Below, one piece after another: positions 3,415 through 30,602 of a DNA stretch of 64,000 nt (its first letter is position 1; each line of letters begins with the position of its first letter). Position numbers and translations under genes: made by a program. The notes beneath the pieces were generated by a model, which saw only the letters and a program-made list of their open reading frames with translations, ran no database searches and had not been told where the DNA came from. The stretch lies in the NCBI RefSeq assembly GCF_055900595.2, contig NZ_CM148325.1; one strand, written 5' to 3'.

Positions 3415-4569
3415 TCATGCCTCTTTGACCCACAGCTGCGGAAAACGTGCTGGTGCAAAACGCAGGGTTATGATCATCAGCCCAACGACGCACAGCGCAT
3501 GAAACGCCCAGTCCATCAGGTAATTGCCACTGATACTACGCAGCACACCAGAAAACCACGGAGCAAGCCCGGCAATGATAAAACCGATCCCCTGCATAAA
3601 CGCCACCAGTTTGCCAGCAATAGCGGGTTGCGCAGAGTGATCGAGCGCCAGCAGCAAACAGAGCGGAAATGCGACACCCAGACCTAACCCACACACCATT
3701 GCCCACAATACCGGCAATTGCAGCGGCAGCCAGATAAAGCCGCAGAAACCCACCAGTTGTAACGCCAGTGCCAGCATTAATAGTTTGCGCCGATCCTGAT
3801 GGCGAGCCATAGCAGGCATCAGCAATGCCCCTGCGGCTTGACCAAGCGTCATCAACGCCAGCAAGGAACCGCTGTACTGCGTGCTGGCACCGATCTCAAT
3901 ATAGAAGGCGGGTAACCAGGCAATCAGACTGGCGTAACCGCCGTTAATCAGACCGAAGTAAACACCCAGCGTCCAGGCGCGGGGAGTGAAGACTACGCGA
4001 ACCGGAGTGGTTGTTGTCTTGTGGGAAGATACGACCTCGCGGGAGCTTTGCCACCACCAGGCAAAGAGCGCAATAATGGCAGGCAGCGCCCACCAGGCGA
4101 GAGTCTGGAACCAAATCTCGCTGTGTTGAACTAACCAGGGCGTCAGGGCGGCACCAAGTCCACCGCCGCCCATCAGAGCCGCAGACCACAGCCCCATCAC
4201 CAGTGGCGTGCGCTGCTGAAACCGCCGTTTAATCACCGAAGGCATCACCGCCTGAATGATGCCGACCCCCACTCCACCGAGCAGTGCGCTGCTAAGCAGC
4301 AGCACACTTTGAGGGTAAAGCTCTCGCATCAATGCGCCGACGGCTATCAACAACAAACTGATGGCGACGCTGCGACGTTCGCTGACATGCTGATGAAGCC
4401 AGCTTCCGACCAGCGCCAGCCCGCCCATGGTGACCACCGGCAGAGCGGTCAACAGGGCAGCCACGCTAAAGCTCATTCCGCTCGCCTGGCGCAATTGCGG
4501 TAGCAGTGGCCCGACGGAGGTGAGCAGTGGTCGCATATTAAGACCAATCAGCACCAGAACCAGCAGCAT
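3415..4569 (-). CDS. cynX: cyanate transporter (MFS), 384 aa
   Basis: Hydrophobic ORF; N-terminus MLLVLVLIGLNMRPLL matches CynX; ATG at 4569 chosen over ORF-track start 4596. Confidence 0.9.
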   Translation of the reverse strand: MLLVLVLIGLNMRPLLTSVGPLLPQLRQASGMSFSVAALLTALPVVTMGGLALVGSWLHQHVSERRSVAISLLLIAVGALMRELYPQSVLLLSSALLGGVGVGIIQAVMPSVIKRRFQQRTPLVMGLWSAALMGGGGLGAALTPWLVQHSEIWFQTLAWWALPAIIALFAWWWQSSREVVSSHKTTTTPVRVVFTPRAWTLGVYFGLINGGYASLIAWLPAFYIEIGASTQYSGSLLALMTLGQAAGALLMPAMARHQDRRKLLMLALALQLVGFCGFIWLPLQLPVLWAMVCGLGLGVAFPLCLLLALDHSAQPAIAGKLVAFMQGIGFIIAGLAPWFSGVLRSISGNYLMDWAFHALCVVGLMIITLRFAPARFPQLWVKEA

Positions 4570-4601
4570 CGTGAACGTCTTTTGATGGTCGCGCATGGCT
4601 G

Positions 4602-5090
<489 letters not shown>

Positions 5091-5102
5091 TTAAAAATAA
5101 GG

Positions 5103-5762
5103 TTACGCTGCGGCCGGCTGGCGTAGCGGTATGGCACAAACGCAAGGATTAGCGGCCAGTGGCACAAACTGGCGGGTTGCGCCGTCAAAGGCTGCGATAC
5201 TTCCGCTTTCAATGTCGTAGACCCAGCCGTGCAGAGCGATCCGCCCCTCTTCGAGCGCCAGGCGCACCGATGGATGAGTTTGCAAATTAGCCAACTGAGC
5301 AATGACGTTTTCACGTACCATCGCCGCAGCTTTTGACGCTAAATCGGAATGCGGGCGCGCCTCATTAACGACGCGAGCTGAATCGGCATAACGCAGCCAG
5401 TGGGAAACAGCTGGCATATGGTCCATGCACTGACAGCTGGCAATGGCAGTCATCGCGCCACAGTTGGAATGACCGCAAATCACAATGTCAGATACCCGAA
5501 GCGCAGCGACGGCATACTCCACCGAAGCAGAAACGCCACCAGGTTCCGGTCCGTAGGAAGGGACGATATTGCCCGCGTTGCGAATCACGAACAGATCGCT
5601 AGGTTCGCGTTGCGTCACCAGCTCAGGGACCAGACGGCTGTCGGAGCAGGAGATAAAAAGTGTGCGCGGGCTTTGCTGTGTCGCCAGCTGTTTAAACAAG
5701 GCTTCCCGCTTCGGAAATGCCTCGCGCTGGAATTTAAGGAATCCATCAATAATCTCTTTCAC
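5103..5762 (-). CDS. cynT: beta-class carbonic anhydrase, 219 aa
   Basis: [16 protein letters not shown]...; CSDSR and HSNCG motifs; GTG start at 5762. Confidence 0.93.
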
Positions 5763-5871
5763 CGTTAACCTCTGTCTGTCTCTGGAATGAGAGGCAGACT
5801 ACTCGCCGATTGCCATAAGGTAAAAGACTCATTTATGATTAGTTCTATTGGATTTACTTATAGGTTGGCGA

Positions 5872-8175: not shown

Positions 8176-9424
8176 TGTTAGCCTCCACATGCGTCATTGC
8201 TGCTGTCGTTTTACGATTCAAAATCGGGTTAAGGATCAGATAGCTCAGCGCACCACCTAATACCGCGTTGACAGGAACAATACCCGGTAACCAGTGGCCT
8301 GCGGCAATCCCCAGCGCGACCGCCAGAATCGCCACCCAATTGACACTCATCATACGCGTGGTCGCAAAGTGCTCATAGCGGCGACGGTTCATCAGATAGT
8401 CGGCGATGATCACGCCACCCACCGGAGGAATAGCAGCCGAAAGGAAGGTTAGCCAGCCGACAAAATTGTTATACAGCCATAGTGCGCAGACCGTGCCGAT
8501 AATACCGTTGATTACTGAAAGAGTTTTGCTCGACATACCGGTAATGTTGGCGAAACCTAAACCCGACGCATAGAGTGCGTTATCGTTGGTGGTCCAGATA
8601 TTCAGCCCCAGCACCACAATCGCAGGCAGCAGCAGGCCCTGAGCAATCATCACATCAGAGATATCCGCCATCCCCAGTGCTGCAGCGCCCGCTGCACCGA
8701 AAATAAACATCAACGAGTTGCCGAGGAAAAAGGCCACCATCGCCACCAGCACCGCCAGTTTGGCATTGCGACCAAAGCGGACAAAGTCAGCGGTGAGCGT
8801 GCCCGCGCTGATAAATGACCCCACAACCAGCGCCAGCGCGACATTGAAATCTAACGGTTGTGCGGGAACGACCGCTTTTAATGCGTCCAGGCCGCCCATG
8901 CCGTTAACGGCCAGCCACACGGAATAACCGCCAAGACAGGCGATAGCCGGAACCGCAATCACCGAAAGAACTGTCAGCGCCGAAATGCCAAAGAAGACGG
9001 TGACGGTCATCAGTAAACCGGAAACGGCAATCAGCAAATTAATATCCAGCCCGGTTGCCTTGCCCACCGGAATAGCAAACATCGCCACGCCAACGCCAAA
9101 CCAGCCAACCTGAGTGCCGCCCAGCAGCAGTGAAGGCAACCATGAGCCTTTAACACCAAACGAGAAGCGAGCAAGAAGATGAGTGGTCAGGCCGGTTTTT
9201 GCGCCAATGTAACCAAGAAATGAAGTGTAAATACCGAGGAGAAGATTACCGATGAGGACTGCGAGGAAGAAATCATGATAGCTAAGACCGGTTCCGAGAG
9301 TGCCGCCGGTCCACATACTGGCGGAAAAGAAGGTTAATCCCAGCATGACGAACGTCAATGCCAATACCCCTTTCCGCGCCGACTGCGGGACTGGCCCCTG
9401 GCTAAAGTTGTTATCTTGCGACAC
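8165..9424 (-). CDS. codB: cytosine permease (NCS1 family), 419 aa
   Basis: 419-aa polytopic membrane [32 protein letters not shown]...; upstream of codA in the same operon. Confidence 0.93.
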
Positions 9425-18191: not shown

Positions 18192-18316
18192 GCAGATAAT
18201 TTACTCTCTACGTAATCAACCTGATTTGCCGAATCCCGCTCATCGGCGATGATACCCCCCGTAATGCGTGGTCCTTATTTCCGATAAGTTTACTTGAGTC
18301 TTTAGCTTCCCATTTC

Positions 18317-18346
18317 AGCCCACTCTCCCCTGTGTGGGCTTTTTTC
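18317..18346 (+). terminator. Rho-independent terminator about 125 nt downstream of yahN
   Basis: agcccac-tctcccctgt-gtgggct hairpin followed by TTTTTTC. Confidence 0.7.
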
Positions 18347-18437
18347 ATTTGTCTGCTTCAGTGAGTAGCTGGCCATGCTCCATCCACTCTGCAAGGATGA
18401 TAATAAGAGGATCTGATTCAGAAGAGTTTTGAAAAAT

Positions 18438-18518
18438 TGGACCGCCATCGAGGCCTCGAACCCCGTACCATACAACAATCCTGGTTGTCGTCTGCTCTTC
18501 CTGATGAGCTAATGGCGG
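18438..18518 (-). ncRNA. tRNA-like element (degenerate; possible pseudo-tRNA or integration scar)
   Basis: Minus strand: perfect 7-bp acceptor stem CCGCCAT/ATGGCGG, D-arm GCTC-ATCAGGAA-GAGC, T-arm CGGGG-TTCGAGG-CCTCG, discriminator T then CCA; anticodon arm non-canonical (loop CAGGATT, no U33) with 4 extra nt before it. Confidence 0.45.
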
Positions 18519-18820
18519 TTTGTGATATGAGCCTTACAGCATATTGTCTGTCAGGCTTGAGTGCGATGCGTAAGATACAGAAAAGACCCCACACAAACAT
18601 GATGGAATTATGATTTTTTTCATATGAATGTCAACCAACACATTCATAAAACACTCGCACAAGTTCACTTTTTAAGCAACATGACGCCGATCACAACAAA
18701 ATATCGGCGAAAAAGGAGGGTAAATGCCATTTGACGTAGAGATAAGCAGATGAAATGATTACCCGCTTTGCGATTCACTCTCTGATGGAATAACAAATTG
18801 GAGATGGAAAAGTTTCTAAA

Positions 18821-19636
18821 CTAAAGAGTGTAGCGTATTTTAACGTGCTTATTTACAGGATAATATTTGTCACCTAATTCCTGCACTCTATTAGATACCC
18901 ATTGATTTAATCGTGCATCATCTCTGTATGTTTTCACGTTCAGAACGGAGAGCAATAACATCACTAGCGATTCAGGAAAAACAGGGTAAATATTTTTTAA
19001 GTGCAATAATAATTCATACGCAAGCGCCTGCTTAATAGGTGCGTCTGCATCCGGAATGCGCGACATTTCGCGAAGCCATTTTTCTACATGCTCACATTCT
19101 TTCCCTTCACGGAAAAGTCTCAACAAAGGCATATGGTGCTCAAGAAGAATGCATTTGCAATCTGTTCGTACTGAATCGATAAACTGCACTAATTTCTTAA
19201 GTCCGGTGAAGCGTCCGGCATGGATATTCTCTTTAATATCAAGAAACACGTCATCCTGATCATATACCCAAACGGTCCCTTTTTGATTTTCAAGTATCCG
19301 AAAAACAAACTTAATCGGGTAATCAGGGTAATCCACCCAGTCATAAACTCCAGGGAAATCATTAAACTGCACATTTATGGTAAGCGCATTGTCGGCTGCC
19401 CACTCGCAATCTCGTACGGCAGCCATGAGATAAATGAGTTTATCATCATCGACTAAATCATCACGACAATCATAAGGATAATCATAGTATTGTTTAATCA
19501 AAACCTTGAATATATCGACACAAGAAACCAGTGTACTTCTGATATCTTCAGGTAACTGATTGTTTTTAAACGTATTGTGTACGCTTTGTTTCGTATATAG
19601 CAACAAATTATTGTGCGGCGCTTTTAATGGTATCAT
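18821..19636 (-). CDS. yahL: uncharacterised protein, 271 aa, in an AT-rich segment
   Basis: Long ORF with clear ATG in a visibly AT-rich stretch; position between yahN and yahK. Confidence 0.75.
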   Translation of the reverse strand: MIPLKAPHNNLLLYTKQSVHNTFKNNQLPEDIRSTLVSCVDIFKVLIKQYYDYPYDCRDDLVDDDKLIYLMAAVRDCEWAADNALTINVQFNDFPGVYDWVDYPDYPIKFVFRILENQKGTVWVYDQDDVFLDIKENIHAGRFTGLKKLVQFIDSVRTDCKCILLEHHMPLLRLFREGKECEHVEKWLREMSRIPDADAPIKQALAYELLLHLKNIYPVFPESLVMLLLSVLNVKTYRDDARLNQWVSNRVQELGDKYYPVNKHVKIRYTL

Positions 19637-19878
19637 TGCGATCTCTCTTAAATAAAAATAAACGTCGCAGATAATAAAGCCCTGATTAAACCAGGCACTA
19701 TCAGAAATCGCTCATAACTAACGAGTGAAGTATTGTGTACTGGAGGGAGTTATTTTAACAATTTGAATTTACGTTATAGGTTTTACCGCTACTTTGATAT
19801 TATTTCGCTCTCCTTAACTAAAAAGTTAAGTGGAGAGCGAAGTTAATATGTTAAACCACAGGGTATTTATTAATTGTT

Positions 19879-20928
19879 TCAGTCTGTTAGTGTGCGATTA
19901 TCGATAACAAAACGATATTTCACATCTCCTCGCAGCATTCGCTCATAGGCTTCATTAATTTGATCGGCCCGAATCATCTCTATATCAGCCACGATGCCAT
20001 GTTCGGCGCAAAAATCGAGCATCTCCTGTGTTTCTGGAATGCCGCCAATCATAGAGCCGGCTATCGCGCGGCGTTTCATGATCAGGTTGAAAACTTCCGG
20101 CGATTTATGCGGTGTCGCAGGCGCACCAACCAGCGTCATGGTGCCATCGCGCTTCAGCAAGGTGGTAAAATCGTCGAGATTATGTGGCGCAGCTACGGTA
20201 TTCAAAATGAAATCGAAACTCTTCACATGAGCCGCCATCTCATCGGCATTGCGCGAGTTAACAACTTCATCGGCCCCAAGGGCTTTTGCCGCTTCGCGTT
20301 TTGACTCAGACGTGGTAAACGCCACTACATGCGCCCCCATCGAGTGGGCCAGCTTTATCCCCATATGCCCCAGACCGCCAATGCCGACCACTCCCACTTT
20401 TTTACCCGGCCCGGCCTGCCAGTGACGCAGCGGCGAGTACGTGGTGATCCCTGCACACAATAAAGGCGCCACCGCCGCCAGTTGCGCTTGCGGGTGACGA
20501 ATACGCAGAACATATCGCTCGTGAACGACAATCTGTTGTGAGTAGCCGCCCAGCGTATGGCCCGGTTCGTCCGGCGTCGGCGAGTTATAGGTGCCGGTCA
20601 TGTGATCACAGTAGTTTTCCAGCCCGTCTTCACACTCTTCGCAATGTTTACAACTGTCGACAATGCAGCCGACACCGACCAGATCGCCCGGCGCATATTT
20701 TTCTACCTGATCACCAACGGCTACCACGCGCCCTACAATTTCATGGCCCGGCACGCAGGGATAAACCGTCCCCGCCCACTCGGAACGGACCTGGTGGATA
20801 TCGGAATGGCAGACGCCACAGTAAGCGATTTCAATTTTGACATCATGCGGTCCCGGTTCACGCCGGGTAATATCCATCGGTTCCAGCGGTTGTTTAGCGG
20901 AATATGCACCAACAGCTTTGATCTTCAT
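19879..20928 (-). CDS. yahK: zinc-dependent alcohol dehydrogenase family aldehyde reductase, 349 aa
   Basis: MDR/ADH motifs (GVCHSD, GHEIVG, GIGGLGH); 349 aa. Confidence 0.9.
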   Translation of the reverse strand: MKIKAVGAYSAKQPLEPMDITRREPGPHDVKIEIAYCGVCHSDIHQVRSEWAGTVYPCVPGHEIVGRVVAVGDQVEKYAPGDLVGVGCIVDSCKHCEECEDGLENYCDHMTGTYNSPTPDEPGHTLGGYSQQIVVHERYVLRIRHPQAQLAAVAPLLCAGITTYSPLRHWQAGPGKKVGVVGIGGLGHMGIKLAHSMGAHVVAFTTSESKREAAKALGADEVVNSRNADEMAAHVKSFDFILNTVAAPHNLDDFTTLLKRDGTMTLVGAPATPHKSPEVFNLIMKRRAIAGSMIGGIPETQEMLDFCAEHGIVADIEMIRADQINEAYERMLRGDVKYRFVIDNRTLTD

Positions 20929-21014
20929 TGTGTTTACTCCTGATTAGCTATATGTATTTGGCGATGACTGAAATGCCATCGCAGCAAAACGCGTCCATTG
21001 AATATAGCCAATAT

Positions 21015-21971
21015 TTAAACCACCCGATCCAGTCCCAACATGCCGCGAGCCTGAATGAAACAGAGCAGCAACGTTCCCCATAAGGCCATCGTCAGGTAGG
21101 GGCTTATCCCGAGAATATTGAAGCCGCTTTCAATAATTTGCAGAAGAAACAGCGCCAGCACCATACCAATTATCCGCCCGCTGCCGCCGTCCGGATTAAC
21201 CCCGCCGAGTACTGCCGCGAGGATTGACACCAGCAAGTACGATTCGCCATAAGAGGCCTTAGCCGAGTTGAGTTTCGACATCATCAAAAATGCCGCTACC
21301 GCACAAAGCAAGGCGGAAATGACATACACCCATATCAGCACCCGACGCGTGTTAATACCGGAGTAAAGTGTTGCTCGTTCGTTAGAACCAATCAGATAAA
21401 TGGATTTACCGAGCGGCGTTTTCTCCAGCAATATCCACAGCCCCAGCGCCACTGCGGTAAACAACCACATCGGTAGCGGAATACCGAACCACTGTGCATG
21501 ATTCAACCACAGCACCCATGAGGGATAATTGGCAATGGCGCTACCGCCTGTCACCAGAATATTTACCCCTTTGAGCAACGTCATCATCCCAAGCGTTGCA
21601 AGAATTGGCGACACTCGAATACCGGCAATCAATACGCCATTACATAAACCAATTATCACCGCCGCACCAGCGCCCGCCAGCAGCGTAGCGACAACCGTAG
21701 TAATACCCGGCGGATACTGAGTCGCCACCCACGCCATCACCAGTGAACAGGCGTTAGCGGTAGCAATAATTGACAAGTTAATGCCGCCACAAAGCATGGT
21801 CACCGCCATAGCCAACGCCAGAATGCCCAGCACGGGCATTTGCGAAGCGACAGACTGGAAGTTACTTATCGACCAGAAAATCTCCGGCATAGTAATGCTG
21901 AACGCGGCAACAGTTAGCACCAGCAGGCCGATCAAATAAAACTCAACGTTATTACGCCACGATTTTTTCAT
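21015..21971 (-). CDS. sugar ABC transporter permease (CUT2 family, RbsC/LsrD-like)
   Basis: Polytopic membrane ORF; ATG at 21971 overlaps the stop of the upstream permease (ATGA coupling); ORF-track start 22001 is a GTG extension. Confidence 0.8.
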   Translation of the reverse strand: MKKSWRNNVEFYLIGLLVLTVAAFSITMPEIFWSISNFQSVASQMPVLGILALAMAVTMLCGGINLSIIATANACSLVMAWVATQYPPGITTVVATLLAGAGAAVIIGLCNGVLIAGIRVSPILATLGMMTLLKGVNILVTGGSAIANYPSWVLWLNHAQWFGIPLPMWLFTAVALGLWILLEKTPLGKSIYLIGSNERATLYSGINTRRVLIWVYVISALLCAVAAFLMMSKLNSAKASYGESYLLVSILAAVLGGVNPDGGSGRIIGMVLALFLLQIIESGFNILGISPYLTMALWGTLLLCFIQARGMLGLDRVV

Positions 21972-22939
21972 AGCAGACTCCGGTTCTGATGCTGACTCCA
22001 CGCCGTGGCGCTAATGCTGGCAACGATGATGATGCCTGTGATCAATGTTTGCCAGTAAGACGAGACTCCCAATAAATTTAGCCCGTTTTGCATCACTGCC
22101 AACAACACCACGCCGAGCAAAGTACCGGTTAACGTGCCGCGCCCGCCGAGCAAACTAGTGCCGCCAAGCACCACCGCAGCCAGTACTGTCAGCTCATAAC
22201 CCAGAAGAGAATCGGGGGCGACAGTCATCACCGTCCACGACTGCACTACACCCGCAGCACCAGACATCAATCCCATATAGCCGTAAACGAAAAGTTGCAG
22301 TTTCAGCACGCTAAAGCCGATGCGACTGGCTGATTCACGGTTCCCGCCAAGGGCATAAATTTTGCGCCCTACACTGGTGAAATTCATGATAAACGCTGTC
22401 AGCAGCACCACCGTAATCATGGCGATCAGCGGCAGACCAAGGCCATAGTCATAGCCGTCAGCATCGGTGTACTTGAACAACATTACCCCCTGCTCAAACC
22501 ACGGCGGAAAGTCGTACAGCCACACACCTTTACTCAACCATAACAGCAGGCCATAGAAAATATTCAGCGTCGAAATGGTGATGATGATAGAAGGCACCCG
22601 TAGGCGATTAACCAGTAAGGCGTTTATTAAGCCAAGTAAAATGCCGATGCCGCCCGCCAGGGCAAACGCGACAGCAAAGTTGCCACCCATTTTTTGTAGC
22701 AACAGCACCATGCCGTATTGCGCAATGATGGTCATTGCCGGAAACGAAATATCAATTCCACCGGAAATTAACACCACAAACAAACCACAGGCGAGAATAG
22801 TCAACATGGCATAGTTATTGGCGAGATCGTACAAATTACCGAATGTCAGAAACTCGTCGCTGCGCCAGGCAAGGCCAACAAACAGCACTATAATCAGTAA
22901 TGCCAGCCAGAATTCATGGCGTTTTTTCAGTTCAGCCAT
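21968..22939 (-). CDS. sugar ABC transporter permease (CUT2 family, RbsC/LsrC-like), 323 aa
   Basis: Polytopic membrane ORF; start overlaps the ATPase stop. Confidence 0.85.
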   Translation of the reverse strand: MAELKKRHEFWLALLIIVLFVGLAWRSDEFLTFGNLYDLANNYAMLTILACGLFVVLISGGIDISFPAMTIIAQYGMVLLLQKMGGNFAVAFALAGGIGILLGLINALLVNRLRVPSIIITISTLNIFYGLLLWLSKGVWLYDFPPWFEQGVMLFKYTDADGYDYGLGLPLIAMITVVLLTAFIMNFTSVGRKIYALGGNRESASRIGFSVLKLQLFVYGYMGLMSGAAGVVQSWTVMTVAPDSLLGYELTVLAAVVLGGTSLLGGRGTLTGTLLGVVLLAVMQNGLNLLGVSSYWQTLITGIIIVASISATAWSQHQNRSLL

Positions 22940-24416
22940 TTACCACCTCCGCAATCCTGGCCTGAGAACTGCTGTCAGGCAGGAAGCTATGGGTGATCTG
23001 ACCTTTTTGCATTACCAAAATCCGGTGGCTTTGATACCACGCTTCTTCAATTTCATCGCAGATCATCAATACCGCAATGCCATGAGCCGCCAGATCGCTG
23101 ATAATGCCGTATATTCCTGCTTTGTTGGCGATATCAACACCGACAGTCGGGCTATCGAGAATCAACAGTCGTGGCCCAATCGCCAGCCATTTGGCGATCG
23201 ATACTCGCTGCGCGTTACCCCCGGAAAGCGTATTCACCGGGAGATGTGGGTCAGAGACTTTGATGGTCAATGCCTTAATTAGCCTGTCCACCAGGTCACG
23301 CACTTTAGCTTCACTCAGAAAGCCGAAGCGATCTTTTACCTTGTGAAAAACAGTGCTAATGATGTTGTCTTCAATAGATTGCGCCATCACCAAACCGCGC
23401 GACATGCGATCTTCCGAAACATAACCAATACCGTGGCGGATGGCGTCCTGGTTACTATGCAGTGTAACCGGCTGACCGTTGATGAGGATCTCACCAGCAT
23501 CCGGTCGGGTCATACCAAACAGACTCAGACATAATTCCGTGCGCCCCGCACCAAGCAGGCCAACAATCGACACCACTTCGCCCGCTTCCACCCGCAAGTT
23601 AATATTTTGATATTCCCCATGACGACTTAAATTACGCACCTCCAGCACTGGGGTGCTGGATTTTCCCTGCCACAACTCTCGCACCTGATATTCAAACTCC
23701 TGGCCGGTCATCAGGAAACCGAGTTGTTTTGTGGTCATCTCTGCAGCCGGAAAGGTCCCGACCAGCTCACCATCTTTCAACACTGAAATACGGTCGGAAA
23801 CTTCCATCACCTCTTCCAGACGATGACTGACGAAGACCACGCAGATCCCGCGTTCCCGCAATTGATGCACCACCTGTAATAACCCTTGCACTTCCTGATG
23901 GGTCAGCGAAGCGGTTGGTTCATCCATCACGATCAACCGTGCGTCCTGCGCCAGTGCACGGCAAATTGCCACCAGCTGACAGCGGGCAATTGAAAGCTCA
24001 GAAACGAGCGTATCCAGTGGCAATGTGACGTTAATACTGGTCATTGCCGCCTGCGCCACCTCACGCAGACGACGTCGGTTAACAAACAGTCCGTGGTGAT
24101 AGTGATTCACGGCGATATTCTCCCAGACACTCAGGTTAGGAAATAAAGAGAGGTCCTGATAAATCACCTGAATCCCCTGCGCCACCGAAGCGGCGGGTGT
24201 CAGCTTTGACCAGTTTTTCCCACCAAGCGTAATTTCCGCCCCCTCATCCGGGCGATAAACACCGGACATAATTTTAATCAACGTCGATTTACCACAGCCG
24301 TTTTGCCCGGCAAGGCAGTGCACCTCACCCGACATAAAGTCGAGAGAAACATCGCGCAGCGCTCGCGTGGCATGAAACGTTTTGTTGATATGACGAAGGG
24401 AAAGGAAGGTTTCCAT
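22932..24416 (-). CDS. sugar ABC transporter ATP-binding protein with duplicated ABC domains (RbsA/LsrA-like)
   Basis: Walker A GQNGCGKST, signature LSGGNAQR and a second ABC domain; ATG at 24416 (METFLSLRH...) preferred over the TTG at 24431. Confidence 0.85.
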   Translation of the reverse strand: METFLSLRHINKTFHATRALRDVSLDFMSGEVHCLAGQNGCGKSTLIKIMSGVYRPDEGAEITLGGKNWSKLTPAASVAQGIQVIYQDLSLFPNLSVWENIAVNHYHHGLFVNRRRLREVAQAAMTSINVTLPLDTLVSELSIARCQLVAICRALAQDARLIVMDEPTASLTHQEVQGLLQVVHQLRERGICVVFVSHRLEEVMEVSDRISVLKDGELVGTFPAAEMTTKQLGFLMTGQEFEYQVRELWQGKSSTPVLEVRNLSRHGEYQNINLRVEAGEVVSIVGLLGAGRTELCLSLFGMTRPDAGEILINGQPVTLHSNQDAIRHGIGYVSEDRMSRGLVMAQSIEDNIISTVFHKVKDRFGFLSEAKVRDLVDRLIKALTIKVSDPHLPVNTLSGGNAQRVSIAKWLAIGPRLLILDSPTVGVDIANKAGIYGIISDLAAHGIAVLMICDEIEEAWYQSHRILVMQKGQITHSFLPDSSSQARIAEVVNG

Positions 24417-24464
24417 AGCATCCCCTGGCAATAAGAATCGGGGCTTTCGCCCCGAAGAAATGGA

Positions 24465-25451
24465 TTAATAAAGTGAGTCAATATTGTCTTTGTTGACCAG
24501 TAATACCTTATGGAAACGGATAATTCGCTTATCCATATCTACGTCGGCCTTACCGAGATTCTCCATTTCTAATCCAGGTTTGATCTCTTCACCCTTCAGC
24601 AACGTGCTGGCGACGGCCGCGAGTGCGTAACCTGCAGAGGCCGGATCGTAAGTAATCCCTTCGGTGATATCACCACTTTTAATCAATGATGCCGCCTGTG
24701 AAGGGATCATCATGCCATAGACTGCGACTTTATTTTTCGCCCGTTTCTCTTTCACCGCACGTCCCGCGCCAATCGGACCGTTTGAACCAAAGGAGACAAC
24801 CGCTTTCAAGTCAGGATAGGTTTTCATCAGGTCCAGTGTGGTACGACGTGAGTCATCCACACTCTCGGCAACCGGCATGCGGCGGGTAACTTCATGCATA
24901 TCCGGGTAATGCTCTTTCTGGTATTTCACCAGCAAGTCAGCCCATAAGTTATGCTGCGGCACGGTCAAACTACCCACATAAATCACATAGCCGCCCTTGC
25001 CACCCATGCGTTTCGCCATATGTTCAACATATTCAGCGGCAAATTTTTCGTTATCAATGATTTCGATATCCCAGTTAGCACTTGGCTGACCGGGGGATTC
25101 GTTGGTCAGAACCACAATTCCGGCATCTCGCGCTTTTTTGAATACCGGTTCTAGCACGTTGGCATCGTTTGGCACGATAGTAATTGCGTTAACCTTACGA
25201 GCGATTAAATCCTCAATAATTTTAACCTGTTGCGGAGCATCAGTACTTGAAGGTCCCACCTGTGACGCATTAACCCCAAAGGCTTTACCTGCCTCGACCA
25301 CACCTTCGCCCATGCGATTAAACCACGGCATACCATCGACTTTAGAGATATTCACCACGACTTTTTCCGCTGCCTGGAGCGGCGAGGAAATTAGCGCAGC
25401 GCCTAATAACAGCGAAGACACCATATTGATAACAAAACGTTTATTCATCAT
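24465..25451 (-). CDS. periplasmic sugar-binding protein (RbsB/LsrB-like), 328 aa
   Basis: Signal peptide MMNKRFVINMVSSLLLGAALISSPLQAAE; type I periplasmic-binding-protein fold; C-terminal NKDNID motif resembles LsrB as recalled. Confidence 0.8.
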   Translation of the reverse strand: MMNKRFVINMVSSLLLGAALISSPLQAAEKVVVNISKVDGMPWFNRMGEGVVEAGKAFGVNASQVGPSSTDAPQQVKIIEDLIARKVNAITIVPNDANVLEPVFKKARDAGIVVLTNESPGQPSANWDIEIIDNEKFAAEYVEHMAKRMGGKGGYVIYVGSLTVPQHNLWADLLVKYQKEHYPDMHEVTRRMPVAESVDDSRRTTLDLMKTYPDLKAVVSFGSNGPIGAGRAVKEKRAKNKVAVYGMMIPSQAASLIKSGDITEGITYDPASAGYALAAVASTLLKGEEIKPGLEMENLGKADVDMDKRIIRFHKVLLVNKDNIDSLY

Positions 25452-25701
25452 TTCAGCCTCATTGCAGGGTAGTCAGGAAGTGTTCGCCCAAATTAGCGCG
25501 CTGGAGAGAATAAGAATTTTCGAATATTTTTATGCAGAATAAACAGCCCTATTTCAGGCAGCTATTAAAAATTTGGTTATAAATATGGACAAAACGGGCA
25601 GTAACAATAAGTGTGACAATCATCACGTAAAAAATAGCAAAATAAACAAAATTAGCGATACTTTATGTTTATGAGCTTATTTCGCGTAGAAAAATAGTTA
25701 T

Positions 25702-26112
25702 CTACACAATGTCAATAAGGGCATATTCTTCAAAGATAACGTCCATTTCGGGTGAATAGCATCCTTCTGCCTGGAAAAAACGACGGTGTTCATTACGCCA
25801 ATATTCAAGACTGAGGTCACCTTCACCTTCCTTACGGGCAAGCTCCGCGGTGACATCAGAAAAGCGCAGTAAATGCAGGCCAATAACTCTGATAACACAT
25901 ACAGGCTCACCACGGCTATTTTCTACAATCTTATACTCACCAATCATCGGAAATGCGTTGTCTTCAATACATCCCGCCAGCGAACCACAGGAAGCTGTTT
26001 TAACACCAGTCGCAATCAACGTTGCGAGGTGATCGGCCAACGCTTCTGAATCGCCAAAAGTACAAAAGGAAGCATGGGGATATTTTTGTGAGATTTTTTC
26101 TTTTATGGTCAT
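25702..26112 (-). CDS. ASCH-domain-like small protein
   Basis: ORF 25702..26145; ATG at 26112 (MTIKEKISQ...) or GTG at 26145; assignment by sequence resemblance only. Confidence 0.5.
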   Translation of the reverse strand: MTIKEKISQKYPHASFCTFGDSEALADHLATLIATGVKTASCGSLAGCIEDNAFPMIGEYKIVENSRGEPVCVIRVIGLHLLRFSDVTAELARKEGEGDLSLEYWRNEHRRFFQAEGCYSPEMDVIFEEYALIDIV

Positions 26113-26408
26113 GAGAATATTTTCGCGATTACGGAAAAAAATCACATCTTAATTACTGTTGATAACCATCAGCAAGAGGATCATTGGTTTTTCTATGTTT
26201 AATCTTTTTTATCCGAAGCAGGTCACATTTATGGCTTGATAAATACCTTTGTTAAAACTCACTTTTGTGTATTTCTCTCAAATAATCCCCTGGAAATTAT
26301 GCCGGGAGATTATAAAGTTCAGGATCATTCATTAACAAACCATTCCCGCCCCACTCCCTGGGGCTTAAATCTCTTACTATTCACCGTTGCAGGCGTTTCA
26401 AATTCGTA

Positions 26409-27791
26409 TCAACCTGCCACACTCCCCCACACCATTTGCCCTTTATGGAACGTTGCGGTTCTCGGCGAGATACGCGCCACCGCCTCGGCGGAACAGGAGG
26501 CGTCCACCAGCACAAAGCTGGCGTCATCCTGCGCTTTAGGCCAGACGCGCTCGCCTTTTTCGTTGAGCGGCAATACATCACCAGTGGCTAAAAACAGCGA
26601 GCGGGACAAATTCTGTTCGTTAGGACGAATATAGAGCTGCGCGTACAGATTGGCTTTTTCCAGCATGTCGCCCAGGCCGTAAGGCGACCAGTGGTCGATA
26701 ACGCTGTCGGTGCCGGTCATCACTTTTACGCCTTTGTCGTGCAGCTGTTTGAGCGGCATATGCAACGTGCCAATCGGCACCGTCGAGGCGATCGAGATTT
26801 GCTGCGCCGCCATCCGGTTCGCCAGTTCATCTACTTGTTGCTCGTTGAGGGTAGCCAGCGCAAAGGCGTGGCTGATGGTCAGCTTGCCTTTTAGCTGCGG
26901 CGTTTTCTCCACTGTTTCAACCATATAATTGATGGCTGCCACGCCCGCCGGAGTGGTTTCGTGCAGATGAATATCGACGCCTTTGTCGTAGTCCAGCGCA
27001 ATCTGGAACATGGTGTCGAGGGATTTTTCCATCGCGCCATCAACACTGGTCGGGTCCAGCCCGCCGACGTAATGCGCGCCTGCCTGCATTGCTTCACGCA
27101 TCAAGGGTTCCGATTTCGACAGCAGCAAACCGTGCTGCGGGAAGGCGACGATTTCACACTCGAAGCCCGCCTGACGTCGCGCCAGCACCGCCTGCAAATT
27201 TTGCAGATTTTTCAGGCCGGAAACCGGTTCGATATTGCAGTGGCTGCGGGCAATGGTGGTGCCTTTCGACTGCAATAAATCGATCAGTTTTTCTGCCCGC
27301 TCCTGCGTGTAGGGTTGCAGTTCCGGCAGCATTTTTTGCTCGAGTTTGATCATGTCCTGGATAGTGGTGCCTGCCGGGCGATTGAGCGAGCGCCACGGCC
27401 CACCGTAAAAGGTTTTGTCGAGATGAATATGCATGTCGCGGGTGGTGGGCAGCATCAGCTTACCGCCAGCGTCATAGTGCGGCAGCGTGGCGTCCGGATG
27501 CTGCTTGTTCTCGCGCAGCGCGACAATTTTGCCGTCCTGAATCTCCACGGTCTGGCGCGCCGTGCGGGTCTGCACCGCCACGCCATTTTCATAGTCAAAA
27601 CCGGTTTCCAGCAGCACGTTGTCGAGATAGTAGTGCGGGTCAGTGATTTTCATGGTGTTATTCGCGTCGCAGTGGGTGGTGCCAGAGACCTCCGCATGGG
27701 CGAATGGCACAGAGGTACCAAACAGCGCGGCGGCGGTGACCATCTTACCGCTCTGGCTCAAAAACTCACGACGGCTATTGTTTTCTTTCAT
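26409..27791 (-). CDS. yahJ: Tat-signal amidohydrolase/deaminase family protein, 460 aa
   Basis: N-terminal twin-arginine motif SRREFLSQSGKMVTAAALFG; metal-dependent amidohydrolase fold. Confidence 0.85.
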   Translation of the reverse strand: MKENNSRREFLSQSGKMVTAAALFGTSVPFAHAEVSGTTHCDANNTMKITDPHYYLDNVLLETGFDYENGVAVQTRTARQTVEIQDGKIVALRENKQHPDATLPHYDAGGKLMLPTTRDMHIHLDKTFYGGPWRSLNRPAGTTIQDMIKLEQKMLPELQPYTQERAEKLIDLLQSKGTTIARSHCNIEPVSGLKNLQNLQAVLARRQAGFECEIVAFPQHGLLLSKSEPLMREAMQAGAHYVGGLDPTSVDGAMEKSLDTMFQIALDYDKGVDIHLHETTPAGVAAINYMVETVEKTPQLKGKLTISHAFALATLNEQQVDELANRMAAQQISIASTVPIGTLHMPLKQLHDKGVKVMTGTDSVIDHWSPYGLGDMLEKANLYAQLYIRPNEQNLSRSLFLATGDVLPLNEKGERVWPKAQDDASFVLVDASCSAEAVARISPRTATFHKGQMVWGSVAG

Positions 27792-27800
27792 CTTACGTCC

Positions 27801-28751
27801 TTACGTTTTAATAATATGGGTGCCCGTCTCGCCACGCAGCGCCGCGGGCAGGCATTCCGGCGTGGTGATAATCACTTCTTTGCCGCCCTGTTCTAAAAAT
27901 GTCAGGCTGGCGATGATTTTTGGCAACATGCTGCCAGGCGGGAAATGCCCTTCCTGCATATAGCGGGTCATGGTGGCAATATCCACCCGATCCAGCGCCT
28001 GCTGCTGCGGTTTGCCAAAATGAATACAGACTTTTTCCACGCCGGTGGTGATCACCAGAATGTCGGCGTGAATTTCGCGGGCCAGCAGCGCGGTGGAGAG
28101 ATCTTTGTCGATAACCGCGTCCACGCTTTGGTAATCTCCCGCGTCAGTACGCACCACCGGAATTCCGCCACCGCCCGCACCAATCACCACAAACCCTTGT
28201 TGGATCAGCGCTTTAATGGCAGGTGCTTCAACAATACGTTTCGGTTCCGGCGAGGCGACCACGCGGCGATAGCCGCGTCCGGCATCTTCAACAAAACGCC
28301 AGTCAGGGTTTGCCTTTTGTAATTCGTTACGCTGGCTTTCACTGAAGAATGCGCCAATGGGCTTGGTGGGGTGAGCAAACCCCGGATCGTTTTTATCCAC
28401 TTCCACCTGAGTCACCACAGTGACGGCTTTTTTCTCGCCGTGGCGCGCCAGCCGATTGTTCAGCGCCTGTTGGATCAAGTAGCCAATGCCGCCTTGCGTA
28501 TCTGCCACACAGTTCGCCAGCGGCGTTAAGGGCAGCCCTTCGCGCTCGTGGGCAATCTCCGCACGGCGTAGATCCAGCCCAACCTGCGGCCCGTTGCCGT
28601 GGGTCAGCACAATGTCGTAATCGGAAGCCAGCATTTCCAGCACCGTCTCGGCGACGGCCTTCACCGCCTCCGCCTGATGCTCAATCGACTGGCTGGCGTT
28701 ATCTTTGATAATGCTGTTGCCACCAATGGCAACGACCACAAGTTCTTTCAT
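27801..28751 (-). CDS. yahI: carbamate kinase-like protein, 316 aa
   Basis: Amino-acid kinase family N-terminus MKELVVVAIGGNSI... Confidence 0.85.
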   Translation of the reverse strand: MKELVVVAIGGNSIIKDNASQSIEHQAEAVKAVAETVLEMLASDYDIVLTHGNGPQVGLDLRRAEIAHEREGLPLTPLANCVADTQGGIGYLIQQALNNRLARHGEKKAVTVVTQVEVDKNDPGFAHPTKPIGAFFSESQRNELQKANPDWRFVEDAGRGYRRVVASPEPKRIVEAPAIKALIQQGFVVIGAGGGGIPVVRTDAGDYQSVDAVIDKDLSTALLAREIHADILVITTGVEKVCIHFGKPQQQALDRVDIATMTRYMQEGHFPPGSMLPKIIASLTFLEQGGKEVIITTPECLPAALRGETGTHIIKT

Positions 28752-28789
28752 GTTGTTATGTCCGCTACAGAGGGTGATGGGGTTATGAC

Positions 28790-29160
28790 CAACGCCAGAC
28801 AGCCTGATGCGCTACGCTTATCAGGCCTACAGATTCTTGTGCCATTCGTAGGCCGGATAAGGCGTCCACGCCGCATCCGGCAATGGTGACAAATGCCTGA
28901 TGCGCTACGCTTATCAGGCCTACAGATTCTCGCGCCACTCGTAGGCCGGATAAGGCGTTCACGCCACAACCGGCAATGGTGACAAATGCCTGATGCGCTA
29001 CGCTTATCAGGCCTACAGATTCTTGCGCCACTCGTAGGCTGGATAAGGCGTTCACGCCGCATCCGGCAATCGTGACAAATGCCTGATGCGCTACGCTTAT
29101 CAGGCCTACAGATTCTTGCGCCACTCGTAGGCCGGATAAGGCGTTCACGCCGCATCCGGC
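28790..29160. repeat. Tandem BIME/REP array, 4 copies of a 93-bp unit
   Basis: gcctgatgcgctacgcttatcaggcctac recurs at 28802, 28895, 28988 and 29081, each followed by an inverted REP gtaggccggataaggcgttcacgccgcatccggc; ORF 28748..29263 across it is a translation artefact. Confidence 0.9.
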
Positions 29161-29183
29161 AGAGACAACGCGCACTTTGCAGG

Positions 29184-30602
29184 TCAGACACCGTAACGTT
29201 CGCACCAGCCAAGAATGGCTTTTTCGAAGCAGGCGAATGGTGGATGCACAATGCCCGCGCCAATCATGCCGACGCCCGCATCTTTATGGGCAATGGCGGT
29301 GTTGATCACCGGCAGAATGCCACTGCTACCCACGCGGGTGATGTCGATTGCCGTCGGCACACCCATAAAACCGAGCAGCGGAATGGTCACGTTGGGGTTT
29401 TCGCCGAGAGTGATTTCGCGCATCTGACGGGAGAAATCGATAGCCTCTTCCACCGTACCGCCCACCAGCGCGACGATTGCAGGCGCGGTCGCCATCGCAA
29501 ATCCACCAATGCCGTAGGTTTCGGTGATGGCGCTGTCGCCAATATCCAGCCCCGAATCTTCCGGCTTATAACCGGCAAACATCGGGCCGATGACCTGTTG
29601 CGCCGGGCCGGTAAACCACTGCCCCGGCAGGCCGCTGACTCGCAGGCCGAACTCGACACCGTTACGCGCCATGGTGGTCACCACGGTGCTGTATTCAATG
29701 CCGTGCGCCGCATCCATCGCTGCTTTACACATTGCCATCCACGTCGGGCCGGAGAAGTAATCGCTGCTGGCGACAAACTCAAACACTTCACGCTGTTGCT
29801 CGACAGAATAGCCCGCCTGAATAATCCCCGGCGTCAGCGCCTGAATCAGCAGCGTCGTCCCGGCGTTATTGCGGTTATGGCATTCATCTCCCATATGCAG
29901 CGCCTGCGCCAGCATTAAGCGCAGATCGATTTCGCCGATAATTTTCATCGCGTCGCGCAGCATGGGCCCCTGCACATCGCGCATCCAGTTGAGGCGGTCA
30001 ATCACGCTCTGATCGTTGGCACCCATACGCAAAATCTTCGCCATCTGCTCGCTCATATTGGTGTAAGCGATGTTGCCGTAGGTTTTGTTTTTCACGATGT
30101 GCATAAACATCGAGGCCGAGGTAACACCCGCCATCGAACCCACGCAGTCGTGCTCGTGGCACGGCGAGAAGGTGATCTCCCCGGAAGCCGCCAGTTCGGC
30201 CGCCTCGTCGAGATCTTTCGCCAGCCCTTCGAACACCAGCGCCCCGGTGACCGCGCCTTTCATAGCGCCGCACATTTTTTCCCAGGTCACTGGTGGCCCG
30301 GCGTGAAGAATGGTTTTCGCCGTCATGCCAGGCACCACGTTAATCGCCTGATCAAAACCAATCAGCACCGGATGCGACTGGATAATGCGTTCCAGCGCCT
30401 GCTGGTTAGCGGCGGCGATTTTGTCTGCCAGCGGCGAATCGGCAATGTTGTCCAGCGCCTGCACCACCTGCATATTGCCCTGCCCCGGCGGCGTCCAGTC
30501 GAGTTGGGTCACTTCTACATGCTGCTTTTTCAGATCATCGCTAAACATGGCGATGCCGACGTTAATAACGTTCAACGGTTGGCTAAACAGTGACGGACTC
30601 AT
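29184..30602 (-). CDS. yahG: DUF1116-family protein, 472 aa
   Basis: ATG overlaps the yahF stop (ATGA); paralog of ylbE-type proteins. Confidence 0.85.
   Translation of the reverse strand: MSPSLFSQPLNVINVGIAMFSDDLKKQHVEVTQLDWTPPGQGNMQVVQALDNIADSPLADKIAAANQQALERIIQSHPVLIGFDQAINVVPGMTAKTILHAGPPVTWEKMCGAMKGAVTGALVFEGLAKDLDEAAELAASGEITFSPCHEHDCVGSMAGVTSASMFMHIVKNKTYGNIAYTNMSEQMAKILRMGANDQSVIDRLNWMRDVQGPMLRDAMKIIGEIDLRLMLAQALHMGDECHNRNNAGTTLLIQALTPGIIQAGYSVEQQREVFEFVASSDYFSGPTWMAMCKAAMDAAHGIEYSTVVTTMARNGVEFGLRVSGLPGQWFTGPAQQVIGPMFAGYKPEDSGLDIGDSAITETYGIGGFAMATAPAIVALVGGTVEEAIDFSRQMREITLGENPNVTIPLLGFMGVPTAIDITRVGSSGILPVINTAIAHKDAGVGMIGAGIVHPPFACFEKAILGWCERYGV

Follow-up and report, generated by a model that had tools for sequence, protein, structure and literature searches.

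The best-described relative of the locus considered here is the Aau system of enterohaemorrhagic Escherichia coli (EHEC), which was introduced as "accessory L-arabinose uptake" (Cottam et al., Nat Commun 2024, PMC11127945). The crystal structure of its binding protein AauA, 9I1M, was deposited with a later study (Cottam et al., Nat Commun 2025, PMC12307932), which found alpha-D-ribulose in the crystal, held by K37, W43, E118, H167, E196 and S223, and reported a Kd of ~2 µM for D-ribulose versus ~598 µM for L-arabinose. D-ribulose is taken up only with L-arabinose present, and AraB phosphorylates the imported sugar; the phosphorylated D-ribulose then feeds the pentose phosphate pathway (PMC12307932). 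An EHEC aau deletion mutant was outcompeted ~100-fold in streptomycin-treated mice (Cottam et al.). Here we analyse a 64,000-nucleotide stretch of DNA (the window; NCBI RefSeq assembly GCF_055900595.2, contig NZ_CM148325.1) in which five extra genes stand between yahK and yahJ. The extra transporter genes are the published Aau system (Z0415-Z0419, O-island 17 of EHEC) and have thus already been characterised. We read the segment as a chromosomal aau locus (aauABCD, a CUT2-type importer) that would serve AraC-controlled D-ribulose import, together with an unrelated ASCH gene, and the short spacer of K-12-type genomes as the probable product of deletion; we put the probability of this combined reading at roughly 0.88.

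The yahK–yahJ spacer of the window measures 5480 bp (yahK start 20928, yahJ stop 26409), against 376 bp in K-12 and BL21, and the gene order is prpR, yahO, yahN, yahL, yahK, the five extra genes, yahJ, yahI, yahG. All five extra frames are intact and, like all the yah genes of the window, lie on the minus strand. The features of the segment are as follows.

21015..21971, minus strand: aauD, permease (NCBIfam); K-12-type genomes retain its last 72-75 bp (21015 to ~21089).
21968..22939, minus strand: aauC, permease (NCBIfam matches to AraH and RbsC permeases).
22932..24416, minus strand: aauB, intact, encoding a 494-aa ATPase with two fused nucleotide-binding domains (NCBIfam alignments).
24438..24455, minus strand: GC-rich hairpin, TCGGGGCGAAAGCCCCGA then TTCTTATT, in the aauA-aauB spacer (terminator-like match).
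24465..25451, minus strand: aauA, predicted periplasmic D-ribulose-binding protein (phmmer against PDB; ligand residues).
25702..26112, minus strand: ASCH-domain gene, 136 aa, apparently separate from aau (Pfam PF04266); K-12-type genomes retain its last 48 bp (25702-25749).

A first-pass annotation of the window had seen several of these points. Its view that ~5.5 kb separate yahK from yahJ, where it gave ~0.5 kb for K-12, and that the segment is missing from K-12, is borne out by the two spacer lengths. The complete CUT2-type importer that it described is indeed present, the binding protein, tandem ATPase and two permeases all matching CUT2 models, and the ASCH-like gene that it placed upstream of the transporter matches PF04266. 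It was also right that the segment genes run in the direction of the yah genes and that no dedicated regulator is encoded, the list of open reading frames (ORFs) of the window containing none within the segment. The ATGA overlaps that it ascribed to the operon stand for aauC/aauD only; aauB and aauC overlap by 8 nt (ATGGCTGA), and aauA and aauB are separated by a 48-nt gap holding the hairpin, which may be a partial terminator or an mRNA stabiliser. Its treatment of the system as uncharacterised does not hold, since Aau already has a name and a crystal structure and has been studied in mice. The distance from aauD to yahK is 86 bp, in which we found no terminator-like site, and Rfam families gave no match in 20700-26600.

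The identification with Aau is carried by the binding protein. In a phmmer search against the PDB, AauA of the window aligned over its full length with 9I1M_A (AauA), with 325 of 328 residues identical (E 2.7e-213), and with the Klebsiella entry 3D02 (E 4e-188). The differences S23A, D200V and E297Q (window-to-9I1M direction) spare the ligand positions, and all six D-ribulose-contacting residues (6/6, published numbering) are kept. A Sec signal peptide occupies ~residues 1-27, ending ...LQA before AEK. At the nucleotide level the window is 97.7% identical to the O157:H7 locus, and the order in O157:H7 FRIK804 (yahJ, ASCH, binding protein, ATPase, two permeases, yahK) is that of the window; the window is 100% identical to a canine isolate, strain Z0117EC0005. 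NCBIfam groups the four transporter proteins with the ribose/arabinose/xylose/Lsr (CUT2, TC 3.A.1.2) importers, none reaching the cut-off of any named equivalog. AauA matches RhaS, LsrB, AlsB, RbsB and XylF models or structures (Peripla_BP_4 being recorded for the homologous gene at a related locus, L088), and AauC and AauD both match RbsC, AraH and LsrC/D permease models of the BPD_transp_2 type. AauB aligns end to end with the AraG, YtfR, XylG and RbsA models, in each case under the equivalog cut-off, and in two separate stretches with single-domain ATPase models.

The aauB start codon, an ATG at 24416, is preceded by an AGGGGA Shine-Dalgarno sequence, and the resulting length of 1485 nt is also annotated in O157:H7. 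In the 100%-identical strain RefSeq starts the ATPase at an internal Met, giving 467 aa and leaving eight residues before the Walker A motif (window 24335-24431). This start looks too short: in the longer ORF the family models begin to align at residues 5-10, and O157:H7 is annotated with 494 codons. The intact aauB of the window differs from that of O157:H7 FRIK804, which is annotated as a pseudogene with an internal stop (its locus 4346-5830), and the aauB gene of the EHEC strain TUV93-0 has a nonsense mutation (PMC11127945). Many O157:H7 strains may therefore have no working Aau transporter, the FRIK804 pseudogene agreeing with the published remark on TUV93-0. Proteins 99-100% identical to E. 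coli aauABCD also occur on SFEK01000152.1, a 4.7-kb contig of a metagenome-assembled genome labelled Bacteroidales bacterium; this is almost certainly mis-binned E. coli DNA.

Carried over to the window strain, the EHEC experiments on D-ribulose capture, transport, use by AraB and dependence on AraC suggest the following route. L-arabinose-bound AraC and cyclic AMP (cAMP)-CRP would activate a PBAD-like promoter upstream of aauA. Periplasmic AauA would capture alpha-D-ribulose and hand it on to the permeases AauC and AauD, for which the tandem ATPase AauB would supply the power; in the cytoplasm the sugar would be phosphorylated by L-ribulokinase AraB and enter the pentose phosphate pathway.

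The aau promoter is induced only by L-arabinose and is inactive in a ΔaraC strain (PMC11127945); in EHEC RNA-seq with L-arabinose, Z0415 rose 26-fold and Z0417 43-fold (PMC11127945). Neither Aau paper maps AraC sites or mentions CRP (PMC11127945, PMC12307932). The 250-bp spacer upstream of aauA contains the following predicted elements.

25612..25627, minus strand: CRP-like site CGTGATGATTGTCACA, a 9/10 match to TGTGA-N6-TCACA; putative function.
25600-25584, minus strand: AraC I1-like half-site TGCCCGTTTTGTCCATA, resembling PBAD I1; putative binding.
25579-25563, minus strand: AraC I2-like half-site TAACCAAATTTTTAATA, after a TTTA spacer, the direct repeat spanning 25563..25600; putative binding.
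25536..25541, minus strand: candidate -10 hexamer TATTCT, in a conserved column TAyyCT.

In gene orientation the predicted layout reads CRP site, 11 nt, I1, TTTA, I2, 21 nt, TATTCT, and that of K-12 PBAD reads CRP site, 13 nt, I1 TAGCATTTTTATCCATA, AGAT, I2 TAGCGGATCCTACCTGA, 20 nt, TACTGT. The two regions share the order of CRP site, I1, 4-nt spacer, I2 and a weak -10 of the form TAnnnT, and the I1 B-box TCCATA is identical. They differ in the distance from CRP to I1 (11 nt rather than 13) and from I2 to the -10 (21 nt rather than 20), as well as in the A-boxes, which are TGCC in I1 and TAAC in I2 of aau instead of TAGC.

The CRP, I1, I2 and -10 blocks stand out as conserved islands in otherwise unalignable DNA when the upstream regions of Klebsiella, Franconibacter, Mangrovibacter, Symbiopectobacterium and Aeromonas are compared, and the CRP-I1 spacing is fixed at 11 nt across these genera. 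I2 starts with the canonical TAGC in most of the aligned genera and with CAGC in Mangrovibacter. A compact motif, [TC]CCAT[AG]-N4-NAGC, expected ~0.006 times per 400-nt spacer, lies upstream of the aauA orthologue in 32 of 38 Enterobacterales/Aeromonas loci (at least 74% protein identity), and in 0 of 20 Pasteurellaceae/Vibrio loci and 0 of 20 Rbl-type loci (58-61% identity). A search of the window with the strict AraC two-half-site consensus, allowing up to 3 mismatches, returned no match, because the E. coli I2 is too degenerate. The positions of the AraC and CRP sites are inferences from sequence and cross-genus conservation. Since the operators are conserved upstream of aau orthologues from Klebsiella to Yersinia, these comparisons suggest that AraC control of the transporter is old and widespread in Enterobacterales and not peculiar to EHEC. 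With such a control region, the operon would need no local regulator.

We then compared the window with genomes that have the short spacer. The spacers of K-12, BL21 and Nissle 1917 align to the window in three collinear blocks: up to 21086 (the yahK start, the 86-bp spacer and the last 72 bp of aauD), 25680-25749 (the last 48 bp of the ASCH gene and 22 bp downstream) and 26348 onward. Both gene fragments of the K-12-type spacer translate in frame and with their stop, the aauD fragment as ALWGTLLLCFIQARGMLGLDRVV and the ASCH fragment as EMDIIFEEYALIDVV, and for the former site the RefSeq entries of BL21 and Nissle already show a pseudogene fragment of 75 bp. The same C-termini are conserved, always in unrelated contexts, in the orthologous AauD proteins of Klebsiella, Franconibacter and Mangrovibacter and in ASCH proteins from other genera, which argues that the K-12 fragments are true gene relics rather than sequence captured by an incoming cassette. 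Because the K-12-type spacer holds the in-frame 3′ ends of both genes, it appears to be the deleted state and the window the older state in E. coli. The 376-bp spacer would have arisen by two deletions that left these 3′ ends in place.

~21090..25603: predicted deletion 1, removing most of aauD, aauC, aauB, aauA, the core promoter and the AraC half-sites (spacer alignments; Escherichia sp. E2593).
25750..26347: predicted deletion 2, removing the 5′ 88% of the ASCH gene and the region upstream; replaced by 24 nt of unmatched sequence.

The left junction of deletion 1 is sharp (21086-21092). The right junction, uncertain by tens of bp, is placed by a retained, diverged CRP half-site, 'ATCACACTTA'. 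The 63-nt filler of K-12 aligns marginally with the ASCH-aauA spacer (z ~2.3 versus shuffles), and the second filler of K-12, 24 nt long, had no match in the alignments. Escherichia sp. E2593 has an intermediate allele in which the ASCH gene is intact and is followed by ~57 nt, the same aauD relic and yahK, aau being deleted. Its spacer aligns with the 63-nt filler, and the latter is therefore probably a diverged remnant of the ASCH-aauA spacer that reaches ATCACACTTA.

Among 5426 complete E. coli genomes, the full segment is present at this locus (at least 80% coverage) in 2211, and its count is 2211-2213 (41%) across the searches; the doubly deleted K-12-type spacer is present in 2803 (52%), and the remainder (~7%) has neither. 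The deletion-2 segment is found in 2213 genomes, equal to the count for the aau segment, and the two deleted pieces are nearly always both present or both absent. Each search also placed a few matches (2 to 11) of the aau/ASCH segment or the K-12-type spacer on records that carry a plasmid label. A fourth allele is seen in E. coli SCPM-O-B-8794 (a GTDB representative; 8300-9010 of locus L034), where ~130 nt separate a 3′ ASCH remnant from the end of an EAL-domain gene, probably pdeL/yahA; from this junction, yahB-yahJ and most of the ASCH gene appear to have been deleted, with the aau promoter and aauABCD-yahK intact.

The first-pass annotation spoke of a segment 'inserted' between yahK and yahJ, and the labels 'O-island 17' and 'pathogenicity island' likewise imply a recently acquired island that entered a K-12-like empty spacer. 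Such a gain would predict the absence of the segment from K-12, both Aau papers call the locus horizontally acquired (PMC11127945, PMC12307932), and the aauABCD cassette occurs in unrelated contexts in other genera; moreover, our search for AauA in representative genomes of other Escherichia species gave no match, and between the window strain and O157:H7 aau differs less (~2%) than the flanking yahJ and yahK (4-5%). An insertion cannot, however, create an 'empty' site that holds in-frame 3′ relics of two genes of the segment, nor would it account for the intermediate allele of E2593, with its intact ASCH gene and aauD relic. No integrase or transposase genes, and no annotated tRNA gene, lie in or beside the segment, a search for direct or inverted repeats flanking it found none, and the G+C content of aau (48-54%) is ordinary for E. 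coli; the ASCH gene and its flanking spacers are AT-rich (39-42% G+C). We therefore consider a recent island gain very improbable: on the E. coli time-scale 'inserted' has the polarity reversed, and at the E. coli level the label 'horizontally acquired pathogenicity island' is unjustified, laboratory and many commensal strains being deletion mutants with relics. That the segment belongs functionally to the yah cluster, being co-transcribed with yahK or importing a substrate for YahJ, YahI or YahK, as the first-pass annotation speculated, is likewise a slim prospect. The aau and yah genes share an orientation, and with 86 bp and no terminator-like site between aauD and yahK some read-through is physically possible. 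Against this, aau is equipped with a conserved AraC/CRP control region of its own, the orthologous cassettes of other genera lack yah neighbours, and the 52% of genomes without aau still have yahK and yahJ unchanged. In addition, yahK and Z0420 are missing from the EHEC L-arabinose differential-expression tables (PMC11127945), although the RNA-seq strain has a polar aauB nonsense mutation. In that strain the L-arabinose fold-change drops from 43 (Z0417) to 7 (Z0418) (PMC11127945), so that polarity could hide read-through, and low-level read-through into yahK is possible in strains with an intact operon. The proposed link to the yah genes is thus unsupported, given the PBAD-like region of aau itself and a D-ribulose substrate used via AraB (PMC11127945, PMC12307932). 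Beside aau orthologues in other genera we found no conserved partner (kinase, regulator, ASCH or yah genes), the contexts all differing.

Two further explanations concern the ligand. The original 2024 reading, from which the name derives, was that Aau is chiefly an accessory L-arabinose importer; induction only by L-arabinose, through AraC, fits it, as does the modest growth gain of an araE mutant over-expressing Aau (PMC11127945). The aau deletion, on the other hand, causes no growth defect on L-arabinose (PMC11127945), the affinity of AauA for L-arabinose (Kd ~598 µM) is far below that for D-ribulose (~2 µM) and it is D-ribulose that was found in the crystal (PMC12307932), which leaves this function unlikely. 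In RefSeq the product is named 'autoinducer 2 ABC transporter substrate-binding protein', which points instead to an Lsr-type importer of autoinducer-2, and LsrB structures are indeed distant matches of AauA (E ~1e-23). AauA scores only 110.8 bits against the NCBIfam LsrB equivalog (cut-off 384), however, and 136.9 against RhaS (cut-off 342); none of lsrK, lsrR, lsrF and lsrG adjoins aau in the window, and the solved structure holds D-ribulose. An autoinducer-2 importer is hardly credible, and since the LsrB model score is so far below its cut-off, the RefSeq name is a misnomer.

Several points weigh against our preferred reading of the segment as a D-ribulose importer locus lost from K-12-type genomes. 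Its function is transferred from EHEC to the window strain through near-identity and intact frames, and the ligand has already been reassigned once in print, L-arabinose (2024) giving way to D-ribulose (2025). The AraC and CRP sites are predicted ones; only 8 of the 10 positions of TAGC-N7-TCCATA are matched by the E. coli I1, and I2 is degenerate. For the right junction of deletion 1 the alignment is weak (z ~2.3), although the E2593 sequence strengthens it. Finally, the search of representative genomes of other Escherichia species yielded no AauA orthologue, and since the cassette also sits in unrelated contexts elsewhere, it is conceivable that the E. coli lineage gained the locus at an older date, with loss coming later.

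The same aauD-relic junction occurs in E. coli phylogroups A and B2 and in Escherichia sp. E2593, whose adjacent yahK is ~10% diverged. Across yahG-yahJ, E2593 and the related locus L088 are ~95% identical to K-12, about as distant as the window is, and the locus is therefore mosaic. We tentatively raise the idea, which we hold to be possible but rather doubtful, that the presence or absence of aau is an old polymorphism from a single ancient deletion and not an island gain; taken with the conserved operators, this would mean that AraC-controlled D-ribulose scavenging goes back to the enterobacterial ancestor, that long-term selection or recombination has maintained its variability, and that it is not an EHEC-specific 'hijack'.

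The ASCH gene appears to be a unit separate from Aau and an older neighbour of yahJ. Its product matches Pfam PF04266 over residues 27-133 (E 8.6e-22), no NCBIfam model matches it and the closest structures are PDB 1T62 and 3S9X (the latter deposited as 'ASCH domain', E 4.4e-17). Upstream of the gene, inside the segment deleted in K-12, lies a promoter-like site.

26309..26338, minus strand: candidate sigma-70-like promoter TTGTTA-18-TATAAT, 10/12, the best in the region (consensus match only).

The separateness of the gene is indicated by this site, by E2593, in which the gene adjoins yahJ without aau, by other genera, in which it is not linked to aau, and by SCPM-O-B-8794, the GTDB E. coli representative in which it is mostly lost while aau remains. 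ASCH enzymes such as YqfB hydrolyse N4-acetylcytidine and N4-acylcytosines (PMC6972931; 2026 bioRxiv preprint), and the window protein is most likely a small amidohydrolase as well. It shares the PF04266 fold family with the YqfB-type enzymes and has a Lys-Thr pair in the conserved N-terminal motif GVKTAS, spotted by eye only. Unlike them, it falls into the 136-aa 'YhfF' subgroup, with 136-aa homologues across Enterobacterales. From gene order only, Z0414 of EHEC is most likely this gene. Z0414 rose 3.7-fold with L-arabinose in EHEC (PMC11127945 Supplementary Data 1), which is unexpected for a gene upstream of the AraC-dependent promoter; our sole suggestion is a general cAMP-CRP effect.

The surrounding yah region is, it seems, unusually polymorphic or mosaic within E. 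coli. Among the window strain, K-12 and O157:H7 (window 26409-30602 and 19879-20928), yahG, yahJ and yahK differ by 4-5% and yahI by ~7% at the nucleotide level. YahL protein identity between E. coli strains is 87% (BL21) or 76% (SCPM-O-B-8794), with no YahL match in the Nissle locus, and yahM is annotated as frameshifted in the window strain (window 18200-19640). The yahI–yahG gap, or 'yahH' region (window 28802-29161), contains a 93-nt unit that is repeated in tandem 3.9 times and carries REP/BIME-like palindromes; on both strands these repeats give rise to long spurious ORFs whose peptides are repetitive. The N-terminus of YahJ (window 27700-27791, minus strand), MKENNSRREFLSQSGKMVTAAALFGTSVPFAHA, combines the twin-arginine motif SRREFL, a hydrophobic stretch and AHA, which suggests that this cytosine-deaminase-like amidohydrolase may be exported to the periplasm by the twin-arginine (Tat) route.

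Aau is a documented gut-colonisation fitness factor of EHEC, and recognising the locus avoids its re-discovery. The identity of AauA also corrects a misleading RefSeq label, the 'autoinducer 2' binding protein. The predicted AraC/CRP sites offer a concrete target for mutagenesis, and their conservation suggests that Enterobacterales widely keep this transporter under AraC control. The polarity of the deletion, the PBAD-like control region and the separateness of the ASCH gene are in neither Aau paper (PMC11127945, PMC12307932); they are refinements and do not amount to a new kind of system.

Collectively, our results place the window locus closest to EHEC Aau (AauABCD; Z0415-Z0419, OI-17), with which it shares the locus, gene order, neighbours, ligand residues and a 99% identical AauA. 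Unlike O157 strains of the EDL933/TUV93-0 type, whose aauB has an internal stop, the window strain is not O157 and its aauB is intact. The four-gene operon of Klebsiella pneumoniae that encodes 3D02 has the same four genes, a 91% identical binding protein and kept CRP and AraC-like sites, but lies in another chromosomal neighbourhood, without ASCH, yahJ or yahK; 3D02 comes from structural genomics, the name under which it was deposited indicates neither ligand nor function, and a literature search found no publication on it. More distant is Rbl of Citrobacter rodentium (ROD_24811-61), a homologous CUT2 transporter, ~60% identical and also for D-ribulose (PMC12307932); the AauA relatives of 58-61% identity, for example that of Citrobacter amalonaticus, are of this type. 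Unlike the case with Rbl, whose operon has its own kinase and isomerase and responds to D-ribulose, the aau segment contains four transporter genes and no D-ribulokinase or isomerase genes, and Aau, without catabolic genes of its own, uses AraC and AraB.

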